NCBI GenBank assembly: GCA_044892505.1
Contig: CM097883.1
Coordinates: 183,706,001 to 183,770,000 of the forward strand
From: Schmidtea nova
Taxonomy: Eukaryota
Direction of reading: 5' to 3'
Length of the DNA stretch: 64,000 bases
In this document: piece after piece, positions 32,351-34,954 of the stretch
Layout of the letters: each line of letters starts with the position of its first letter
How positions within the stretch are numbered: position 1 is the first letter of the stretch
The notes under the pieces: model-generated
Seen by the model: the letters and a program-made list of their open reading frames with translations, nothing else
What the model was told of the DNA's origin: nothing
Database searches by the model: none
Position numbers and translations under genes: made by a program

Positions 32351-33190
32351 GTTTAAATCCAAAGCCATTATTAAGAGCAGTAATGAGAAAAAATGAAATA
32401 GTAGCTACAAAAATGATAAAATGGAAAGATCTACTCTCTGGAGAGGGACTGATGAATGTGAACAACGAGTTCAAATATGATAAAAACGTGTTAATGGAGC
32501 GAGCTTTGATTGAAAATTGGACATTACCTAGAGTAGCAAAAGCACTACTAAAAAGACCAGACTTCCGATTCACAAACAAGCCAAACTAAGAAATGAAAAT
32601 AAAAACAAAGAGAGAAAAACTACTTGAATTGGTTAAAGAATGGCGAAAAAAGATCAAAAATAAAGACAAGAGTTATCTTCACGACAATGCTGGAACATTG
32701 AAATGCAAAATGGGTGAAATAAAACTAGATGAACAAAGAATTATCAAATTGTATTGGGAAATAATAAAGGATATAGATGTCGAGGACGACATTTCAAAAG
32801 AAACCGAGGGTGATCTGAACGATCCCGATGACGACAAATAAGACGATAAAGACAACGATAGCAACAAACAGCAGCAAAATGATGATAACAGTGATCACGG
32901 AAATCACGGAAGTTACAAATGGGAGAATAAAAACAACGAAAACAAAGAGAACAAGAATGGACAAGAAAATTCTAACTATGAAAATCGAACGGTATGTCTA
33001 CTTAAAAATCCAGGTAAAAATACAATAATTATGACAATATTATTGACAATGTTGAATTGGGTGAAAGCAATCGATTATATATTTGATCAGAGAAGAGCAG
33101 AGGCGAGAATAATCACAGATACAGAAAATATATGGATAACGAATATCAAAGGAGAGCTAATAATTAAAATACGCAGTGGCAATACGGAAA
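32341..33190 (+). pseudogene. Continuation of the ancestral polyprotein: further ankyrin-like helices, acidic/Asn linker, internal signal peptide
   Basis: One frame runs from 32341 with only two stops (32587, 32839) up to TIIMTILLTMLNWVKA-IDY (ATG at 33031); a frameshift near 33175 leads into the next ORF. Confidence 0.65.
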
Positions 33191-34954
33191 AATGGAGTCA
33201 GTGATCACCAGAAATGCATAAGAACAGCATTAGCAATAGGAGAAGAACAAAAGATCGAAAAACTCGAATCAGGAACAACGTATATAATATGTGTATATCG
33301 GACAAATCAAATAAGAGCAATCTGTGCAGCTAAAGAAATGATTACGAAAATGGGAAACGAGAGGAACAAGCTAGAAAAAATACAAAGTGTCACAAAAACT
33401 TTGATAGATGAAAATGAAGAAGAAAACGAAGAAGGGCAAGATAAAAAGGTTATGATGACGATCCAGAACAAAACAACAATAGAAGTGAAAGAAAAAGAGA
33501 TGATGGTAACAAACAAAGTGAGAGAACCTATAACTCAAATTTGTTGGATAAAAACCATCCATATGCAAAATAAGGACAGACAATTATCGTGTAAATTTCA
33601 AATGACAGGCCAAGATGGAAAATTCAGAATACCAGGATTGAAGCCAGGAACAAGCTACAAGATATGCATAAGAAGAATATGGACACAAAAACTATGTCTA
33701 GAAAAACTTACCAAGGAAATCATAACGACAACTACAACAACCAGTGGAACAACTACGTTTTACCCTCTGATATTAGAAACGAAATCCACGGAAATAATAC
33801 TAATAAACAACTATGAGGAAGTAATCAAAAAGGTTTGTTGGAGAAAGGCCGATATGAATAGTGGGCTTGACAACCCTAGCAAATGCTATCAACAGTCAGT
33901 AAAGGGAAAGGAACAAATGATAATCAAAGAGTTAGAATCAAAAACAACGTATCTAATATGCATATGGAGAACGTTAGTCCCAATTTGTCAAGAACACACC
34001 ACGACAGAACAAATAATAACAAGCACAGAAAGCGGGAGAGAACCGATTGAAAAAGCAATAAGACTCCCAAGAGCAACAATAACTGTAACAGAGAAACCAA
34101 CGATAGTCAAAGGTTACAGAAAAGAAATAGAAATATCAATCACTCCAAACCGAATACAAAAAGAAACCGAAAAATTCTTTCAAAATGATATTATAAAAGT
34201 CAAGAACGTACAAGGACATCTTATTGCTAGAATATGCATTTATGAAGTAAAACTACAACAAGAAAAGTGTAAAAGTGTGAGCAATAAAGAAGAAAAATCA
34301 TTTATTGAAGAAGAGGAATATTATGTAGCCGGATGGGAACGAGGAACTAAATACCGGGTATGCCTCTACAAAAAATTAAATGAACATCCAACATGTCAAT
34401 TTATTTCAAAATTACCTAGACGAGTAGACGATACCAGAGAATTCAGTACAGAAGATCAAATACTAACAACAACCAAAACAACCGTTTATAATAAATATAT
34501 ATCGGAGGAAGAAGCCGAACGAATAATCCAAGGAGGGAGACCGATCAAAATCGTACAAACAACAACGGAATCTCCAACAACAATATCAGCAGCAGTAGAA
34601 GAATCAAAAATAGCAATCAAAATGATATGGATAACTGCCGGAATAATAGGTGCAATAGTGGTTTTGATTCTCACACAACATGCAAAAATCACTGGAAGAT
34701 GTAAAAGAAAATCGAAAAGAAAGAGACAATGGCCAAGCATCGAGAAGTTCGAATATGGAATCAGTTTAGAAGAAGTAAAGACGGAAGACGAATATGAGAT
34801 ATGTAATGGATCAGAATTCAATGGAATGTGGATGCAAGGACTACCACCAACGATAAATCCGTCAATAATAGAAGCAGATATATATCGAACTACAAATGAA
34901 TTATATGGGGGAATGCGAAACCTACATTTCGGCCCTCAGGAGACGTTGGTGTAA
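33176..34954 (+). CDS. Type I membrane protein with four Cys-containing FN3-like repeats, Thr-rich linkers, TM helix and Tyr-containing tail
   Basis: LESGTTYIICV, LKPGTSYKICI, LESKTTYLICI, WERGTKYRVCL; TM MIWITAGIIGAIVVLILT followed by RCKRKSKRKR. Confidence 0.75.
   Translation: MAIRKNGVSDHQKCIRTALAIGEEQKIEKLESGTTYIICVYRTNQIRAICAAKEMITKMGNERNKLEKIQSVTKTLIDENEEENEEGQDKKVMMTIQNKTTIEVKEKEMMVTNKVREPITQICWIKTIHMQNKDRQLSCKFQMTGQDGKFRIPGLKPGTSYKICIRRIWTQKLCLEKLTKEIITTTTTTSGTTTFYPLILETKSTEIILINNYEEVIKKVCWRKADMNSGLDNPSKCYQQSVKGKEQMIIKELESKTTYLICIWRTLVPICQEHTTTEQIITSTESGREPIEKAIRLPRATITVTEKPTIVKGYRKEIEISITPNRIQKETEKFFQNDIIKVKNVQGHLIARICIYEVKLQQEKCKSVSNKEEKSFIEEEEYYVAGWERGTKYRVCLYKKLNEHPTCQFISKLPRRVDDTREFSTEDQILTTTKTTVYNKYISEEEAERIIQGGRPIKIVQTTTESPTTISAAVEESKIAIKMIWITAGIIGAIVVLILTQHAKITGRCKRKSKRKRQWPSIEKFEYGISLEEVKTEDEYEICNGSEFNGMWMQGLPPTINPSIIEADIYRTTNELYGGMRNLHFGPQETLV

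Follow-up and report, generated by a model that had tools for sequence, protein, structure and literature searches.

What is a receptor-like membrane protein doing downstream of the integrase in a planarian retrotransposon, and is it that element's envelope? The question is raised by a 64,000-nucleotide stretch of Schmidtea nova DNA (contig CM097883.1, positions 183,706,001 to 183,770,000; hereafter the window), in which a Ty3/gypsy element flanked by long terminal repeats (LTRs) carries a coding region that a sequence-only reading had described as a captured host receptor in the position of the envelope (env) gene. Domain order and comparison with related elements lead us to conclude that the protein is very probably the last module of a giant Burro-like GAG-ENV-POL polyprotein, and a second membrane protein apart from env. 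In the window copy the order is integrase, ankyrin repeats, linker, signal, fibronectin type III (FN3)-like repeats, stalk, transmembrane (TM) helix and tail. Positions are those of the window, and features lie on the forward (+) strand unless marked (-).

The receptor-like coding region continues the integrase frame

The region 33031-34954 had been proposed to be a single open reading frame (ORF). A long frame is indeed present at 33164-34954(+), where it encodes 596 aa, but the frame that begins with the ATG at 33031 ends at a stop at 33204, and the region is split by a frameshift near 33170. This ATG does not mark the start of a gene of its own, because its frame continues the integrase-ankyrin frame at 30881-32350; between the two lie a frameshift near 32335 and, at 32587 and 32839, two stops in frame. 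The window copy therefore has four breaks, and contigs of X1, X2 and X3, three public runs with three organism labels from one study, read differently at all four; a further run, X5, with only a small share, was left aside. In the ten coding pieces listed for X1 and X2, which cover 3843 and 3768 of 4026 bases, respectively, net length differences are zero or multiples of three outside the two frameshift sites, and the X2 pieces overlap continuously from 30959 to 34151. We infer a single ancestral frame that extended from the integrase to the 34954 stop and has decayed in the window copy.

Along this frame, the integrase core and C-terminal part (30845-31660) are truncated at the N-terminus and decayed (54% identity over 274 aa to protein P0003 by tblastn; Pfam rve, E = 0.0013). 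Ankyrin repeats follow in the integrase frame at 32096-32326 (Pfam Ank_2, E = 9e-15). According to the frame analysis, 32260-33021 is a cytosolic polyprotein linker that holds the first frameshift and both stops, and an internal signal-peptide-like segment lies at 33022-33069, recognized by eye and by hydropathy from its basic n-region, hydrophobic core and a small residue where cleavage would be likely.

The window copy lacks gag to RNase H, and a second element has gag and env in one frame

A second element in the window, at 54804-64000(+), has the same primer-binding site (PBS) and one open frame of 1925 aa that extends from 58224 to the window end. This frame encodes, in order, gag, CCHC knuckles, a SUMO-like domain (PF11976, E = 0.023), an internal signal and a Monjiviricetes-type fusion glycoprotein (E = 1.3e-10); it runs off the window, so that pol lies beyond the window edge. 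A BH2-like stretch was noticed in it by eye, with no match in Pfam or the PDB. Several PBS-like repeats occur near 54804-55480, and two ORFs upstream (52859 and 53822) match no known family.

The leader end of the first element (30559-30823) is homologous to 57955-58204, just ahead of the second element's giant gag-env frame, with a score of 80; shuffling the whole leader 40 times gave at most 60, and 200 local shuffles at most 45. The integrase starts only about 20 bases past this leader end. Since the leader end is joined to the integrase, the block of gag, env, protease, reverse transcriptase and RNase H is deleted from the window copy, in which the receptor-like module simply follows the integrase. 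A contig in each of X1, X2 and X3 spans the junction. The window copy is thus an internally deleted, frameshifted remnant that is unlikely to make the protein.

Alternatively, the deleted form could itself be the working unit. It might belong to a non-autonomous subfamily, be the retrocopy of a spliced transcript or be a gene kept by the host to produce an integrase-ankyrin-FN3 protein directly from the leader. The junction falls exactly at the leader end and is bridged in all three runs, and the X1 contigs for the junction and for the FN3 region have similar depths of about 9-10 (depth being no measure of copy number). The four breaks argue against this possibility, as do the listed non-stop substitutions, a selected subset of which 9/10 fall at codon positions 1-2, as in neutral decay. 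We consider a working deleted unit improbable.

The polyprotein may also contain its own processing signals. The pattern [RKQT][IV][NCF][ML][MLV][RKT] is found four times between domains of the second element and twice in the window copy, at 31718 after the integrase and at 32989, 14 codons ahead of the signal ATG. It is absent from four related loci described below (L001, L003, L005 and L006). We therefore regard it as a candidate protease site that is at most family-specific.

Related elements carry both a fusogen and a membrane module after integrase

We selected relatives by an integrase alignment search; of 497 confirmed stretches of metagenome sequence, the best 80 were taken. Of these, 51 have a frame that stays open through the core of the integrase until it stops, another 23 are interrupted before that point, and in 6 the contig ends first. 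Two hydrophobic segments follow the integrase in four of the 51 unbroken frames (L001, L003, L005 and L006) and none in the other 47, 12 of which still have tails of at least 200 aa. In each of the four the intact frame ends with a signal, an ectodomain, a TM segment and a tail; a signal-like segment past the integrase is also seen in L002 and L011, both of which are cut or broken. An integrase tree was built from 60 sequences (the window, 56 distinct loci and P0002-P0004, leaving out 20 short or broken loci, four duplicates and three viral loci). The window groups in it with P0002, P0003, L001, L003, L005 and L006 (support 97/90).

Two of these relatives also reveal where env belongs. Monjiviricetes fusion domains lie upstream of protease, reverse transcriptase, RNase H and integrase in L003 (E = 1e-83) and L005 (E = 5e-94), and env through integrase is a single frame in both, with gag included in L003. 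A fusogen and a post-integrase membrane module thus coexist in these elements. The idea that the window protein occupies the env position is not borne out, as the env of this lineage is encoded in frame, after gag and before pol, as seen in L003, L005 and the element at 58224. One could still propose a stand-alone ORF that replaced env in its slot, given that the coding region lies 3′ of pol, has its own ATG ahead of a signal-like stretch and belongs to a copy without env. However, its frame is shared with the upstream linker; in this lineage env precedes pol, and L003 and L005 have it together with the module; and the window copy lost env in one deletion with gag and reverse transcriptase. 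Such a replacement is largely refuted and, in our view, very improbable. A recent capture of a host receptor lacks support, since database searches returned neither a donor nor a homologue and the module is common to the integrase clade.

The repeats in the L003 and L005 ectodomains have no Pfam match. When their profile was compared with the PDB, all 8 rows came from two receptors, IGF1R and CD45 (best E = 0.033), and a profile pooled with the window repeats matched fibronectin at E = 1.7e-5, with 19 of its 20 PDB matches being FN3-bearing proteins. By these profile matches the L003 and L005 repeats appear weakly FN3-like.

Other features of these relatives were recorded. L005 has a third membrane module, consisting of a signal, one FN3-like domain and a TM segment, between env and protease (L005:4754-5300). 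Three aspartyl-protease-like stretches are present in L005, and a second one lies after the integrase in L006. DEDDy-type exonuclease ORFs are located past the polyprotein in L003 (12085-13470) and L005 (10617-12104), with RNase_T matches at E = 1e-3 and 1e-5, respectively; ORFs resembling them, without a Pfam match, occur in L006 and L001. The L006 tail (4420-4773) contains PPxY, NPxY and Y-x-x-hydrophobic motifs, suggesting a possible use in trafficking or as a late domain.

The ectodomain consists of four repeats that are likely FN3 domains

The long frame contains four copies of the motif [LW]xx[GK]TxYx[IV]C, at aa 34, 159, 257 and 391 (nt 33263, 33638, 33932 and 34334). Among 20,000 shuffles of the sequence from which this pattern was itself derived, 19,998 had no copy and two had one. 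The sequence-only reading had described four repeats of the form C..C..L-x-x-GT-x-Y-x-(I/V)C..C; all four are there, with the motif inexact in repeat 3 (KT instead of GT) and repeat 4 (W instead of L). Repeat 1 (33070-33346, motif at 33263) is split by the frameshift near 33170 and has three cysteines within the long frame; the stretch preceding the frameshift, where this repeat starts, has no significant likeness to the other repeats. Repeats 2 (33440-33718), 3 (33746-34006) and 4 (34067-34414) have four cysteines each and were aligned with one another, and at the DNA level repeat 1 resembles repeat 3 (33212-33291 vs. 33881-33960, 72%).

The whole protein matches Pfam fn3 (PF00041) with 29.2 bits, above the gathering cut-off of 25 (E = 1.1e-6). 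When the repeats were scanned singly, one of the four matched (repeat 2, E = 0.012), and all were below the gathering score. The Leu...Tyr-corner motif of strands E-F is present in 4/4 repeats, once with W for L, and aligns to that of fibronectin. A profile of the four repeats matched seven PDB sequences at E-values up to 10, the best being fibronectin (E = 0.003); we take all seven to be FN3-bearing proteins. Searches with a low-confidence repeat model using Foldseek and VIA-align gave no usable match, and FN3 proteins were not prominent among the results, which is evidence neither way. FN3 clusters in the Atlas scored 0.84-0.90, but recognition was low, and we treat them as no more than a lead. 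Taken together, these matches make an FN3 fold of the repeats likely.

The remaining topology agrees with the initial description of Thr-rich stalks, one TM helix and a tail of about 90 aa with several tyrosines. The linkers between repeats are Thr-rich, and a Thr/Ser-rich membrane-proximal stalk (34415-34615) precedes the membrane, with 27% S+T in the final 60 residues. The long frame has one TM segment (aa 485-503, 34616-34672; mean hydropathy 2.46), followed by a basic stop-transfer cluster, and no second hydrophobic segment. The cytosolic tail (34673-34954) comprises 93 aa with four tyrosines and one Y-x-x-hydrophobic motif, and ends in T-x-V. The fn3 match and this topology uphold the description of a receptor-like, FN3-type, type I membrane protein of a retroelement. 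Likewise, no fusion-protein signature emerged: Pfam detected no fusion-glycoprotein family in either the whole protein or the single repeats, although PF24664 was recovered with this library from L003, L005 and the second element, and the ectodomain has neither a furin site nor a fusion peptide, the sole R-x-K/R-R lying at aa 512, past the TM helix.

Homologues were sought widely. None was found for the protein at near lengths in a set of 5.8 billion sequences, for the repeat profile at longer lengths, or for the protein in metagenome and viral contigs, and a single-sequence search of the PDB gave no match. Among 1.84 billion representatives, two weak bacterial repeat proteins were recovered that have only the short motif in common with it.

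A predicted PDZ-binding end and possible functions

Class I PDZ domains bind C-termini of the consensus form S/T-x-V/L/I. With T-x-V at the end of the window protein and S/T-x-V/L at the ends of the L001, L003 and L005 proteins, these four carry a predicted class I PDZ-binding end on the cytosolic tail; L006 does not. Such ends are found in 4/5 modules compared to 0/47 control integrase frames with 41 distinct ends (p = 3e-5, Fisher test; p = 3e-4 without the window, where the motif was first noticed), and at a background rate of 25/910 frames.

We tentatively favor, at slightly short of even confidence, a role as a non-fusogenic second surface protein, one that would attach to the junctions of host cells and help transfer from cell to cell. 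Attachment or cell-to-cell transfer, which had been suggested from the sequence alone, is still the best functional guess, and the PDZ-type C-termini add support to it. Under this model, the polyprotein would be threaded through the endoplasmic reticulum membrane twice, once for env and again after the integrase. Host signal peptidase would free the type I glycoprotein and the element protease would free integrase-ankyrin. The glycoprotein would then travel to the cell surface, where its C-terminus could bind host PDZ scaffolds at junctions or polarized membrane while the FN3-like rod provides contact or attachment, and particles with a class III fusogen may bud and pass at cell-cell contacts.

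The same architecture could instead serve a receptor mimic or decoy without any attachment role, which would modulate the host by blocking defense signaling, apoptosis or re-infection, or by loosening junctions. Burro elements do carry host-control domains (BIR, BCL2-like, MATH and SUMO-like; PMC6431247), the window element has ankyrin repeats and a RING ORF, the ectodomains are strongly divergent among relatives as would be expected under host conflict, and the tyrosine motifs and PDZ-type end would suit such a function. However, we saw no specific likeness to a cytokine or immune receptor past the generic FN3 motif, and encoding in the same polyprotein as the fusogen implies co-expression with particles. 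A mimic or decoy is a serious contender that we nonetheless rate as unlikely. A third possibility is that the signal and TM segment chiefly tether Pol or the assembling particle to the membrane, with the ectodomain being exchangeable filler. The topology is conserved despite unrelated ectodomains of 104-484 aa, and the extra signal-FN3-like-TM module between env and protease in L005 could be accommodated in the same way. A tether would need neither a four-repeat, disulfide-rich ectodomain nor a PDZ-type end beyond two membrane crossings, and we find this explanation quite unlikely.

Several observations weigh against our interpretation of the protein as an FN3-type surface module that ends a GAG-ENV-POL polyprotein. 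The FN3 likeness spans the E-F strand motif alone, two single-sequence AlphaFold models reach predicted local distance difference test (pLDDT) values of 34 and 39, and of the two sequons in the long frame only one is within the ectodomain. The repeat profiles of the window and of L003/L005 align poorly (hhalign probability 2%, E = 0.024) and the L001 and L006 ectodomains are unlike either; the slot for the module is shared with these relatives, and the ectodomains may or may not be of common descent. No ankyrin repeats were found after the integrase in the relative loci, and the nearest integrases, P0002 and P0003, end without a module, both on short contigs. With respect to the frame, the gap at the first frameshift was seen in only 1937 of 4643 X3 depth units, and 445 substitution and 49 gap rows lie outside the listing, so the X1-X3 copies may hold further stops. 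Finally, the protease-site and PDZ patterns were spotted first and counted afterwards.

Comparison with known systems

Planarian Burro elements are reported to have env in frame between gag and pol as well as ankyrin repeats, with named domains filling only about half of the ORF (PMC6431247, in the parts available to us). The window element resembles the giant gypsy elements of dugesiid planarians, Burro and GYPSM1, in its multi-kb LTRs, tandem repeats, accessory ORFs and ankyrin repeats, a likeness to the published description rather than sequence identity to Burro1-4 or GYPSM1. The second element is also Burro-like in combining gag, CCHC knuckles, a SUMO-like match and a mononegavirus-type env in one frame. 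In contrast, no module with an FN3 domain, a signal or a TM segment is named downstream of the integrase in the accessible Burro description, from which the word "fibronectin" is absent (PMC6431247). BURRO1 expression is reported to increase upon smedwi-2 RNAi (PMC8532177).

GAG-ENV-POL order is likewise documented in nematodes, bryozoans and flatworms (PMC13524379, main text). Those errantiviruses of Nematoda, Bryozoa and Platyhelminthes, with an env of the HSV/gB type (HSV, herpes simplex virus), have the gene order and fusogen class of the second element, L003 and L005, whereas only chromodomains are named at the Pol C-terminus and the words "fibronectin" and "ankyrin" do not appear in that main text (PMC13524379). 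Vesta and Juno elements of bdelloid rotifers offer a partial parallel, as they have small non-env TM ORFs 3′ of pol (Vesta4 with two hydrophobic regions and cysteines between them) and DEDDy exonuclease ORFs 3′ of pol, comparable to the DEDDy-type ORFs past the polyprotein in L003 and L005. They differ in having separate ORF3s and no true env, and no FN3 domain is reported for them in the portions available (PMC5408684).

Host FN3 surface proteins (fibronectin, Tie2, Dscam, NCAM2, IGF1R and, by its features, FNDC9) have the E-F strand pattern L-x-x-x-T-x-Y and type I topology in common with the window protein. The latter differs in its four cysteines per repeat, and no full-length homologue or donor was found in the database searches. 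Among viruses, paramyxoviruses pair a fusion protein with an attachment protein, a non-fusogenic surface partner beside the fusogen, and in HTLV-1 (human T-cell leukemia virus type 1) the C-terminal S/T-x-V/L ends of Env and Tax are tied to cell-to-cell spread. These two-part entry systems and PDZ-binding tails have different folds and no homology to the window protein, and the comparison is one of analogy only.

In the usual view, enveloped LTR retrotransposons encode gag, pol and one env. It is conceivable, if doubtful as a whole, that this clade of Ty3/gypsy elements from invertebrates has a polyprotein threaded through the membrane from which both parts of an entry system derive. One would be the class III fusogen encoded between gag and pol, and the other an exchangeable attachment protein of FN3 type, located past the integrase and kept at host cell junctions by its PDZ-binding tail, allowing targeted cell-to-cell spread, for example to stem or germ cells. 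If true, the existence of a second, conserved surface protein, released from the Pol C-terminus and bearing a terminal PDZ-binding motif, would indicate a way for elements that use gB-like fusogens to select their target cells, a question that env surveys leave open. An FN3-TM module would also account for some of the half of Burro-like polyproteins that carries no annotation, and it predicts that a signal and a TM helix will be found after the integrase in known Burro and GAG-ENV-POL elements. The element type is already known; judging from the portions of the literature available to us, the post-integrase FN3-like membrane module appears to be new, as neither an FN3 nor a TM module is mentioned at that position in PMC6431247, PMC13524379, PMC5408684, PMC11410931 and PMC8532177 and literature searches turned up nothing closer, although figures and supplements may show one.

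LTRs, leader and other features of the window

The element is bounded by a 5′ LTR of about 3.2 kb (23125-26300), next to which lies the PBS, and by a 3′ LTR of about 5.2 kb (36443-41650), longer than the 5′ copy and containing a 187-aa ORF at 40620. Three blocks of the pair are alike at 95.9%, 91.4% and 93.3% (81-94% by blastn), and the two LTRs resemble each other slightly more than either resembles an outer flanking copy of the same family, the left piece of which (22490-23124) resumes at 41651-42674. The element thus seems to be nested within this outer LTR copy. We saw no clean target-site duplication around the element and no polypurine tract ahead of the 3′ LTR. An exact 277-nt tandem duplication (35622-36178), either real or an assembly artefact, is located just 5′ of the 3′ LTR, and more copies of the LTR 3′ end, 81-86% alike, are present at 12180-12415(-) and 20078-20388(-).

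The PBS (26308-26325), which we take to be tRNA-Pro-like, is identical to that at 54804; at two mismatches, two matches were obtained compared to 0.01 expected. The window contains no tRNA genes. In the leader, a small ORF (28757-29071) encodes a RING finger (Pfam zf-C3HC4_3, E = 7.2e-12), presumably an IAP-like RING; two upstream frames contain no BIR domain. Further downstream, a 26-nt tandem array (29970-30163) has counterparts of 25 and 46 nt at a like place in the second element. A short motif is also common to the two leaders (29554-29595 and 56287-56330, E = 0.04) and may be a packaging or structural signal.

Elsewhere in the window, mononegavirus L protein fragments at 1756-3740(+) (PF21080, E = 5e-12; PF14314, E = 2.6e-43) represent an endogenous RNA-virus element, which thus shares the window with elements that carry a mononegavirus-type glycoprotein. 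The region 43435-47851(+), with an Adenain-like protease (PF00770, E = 7.3e-6) and Asn-rich ORFs, is presumably a Polinton/Maverick remnant, and hAT transposase remnants (Dimer_Tnp_hAT, DUF4371) lie at 6132-8894. Outside the window, protein P0017 has a stretch 67% identical to the window integrase C-terminus fused to a UBX domain, and is probably a gene model that absorbed a fragment of such an element.

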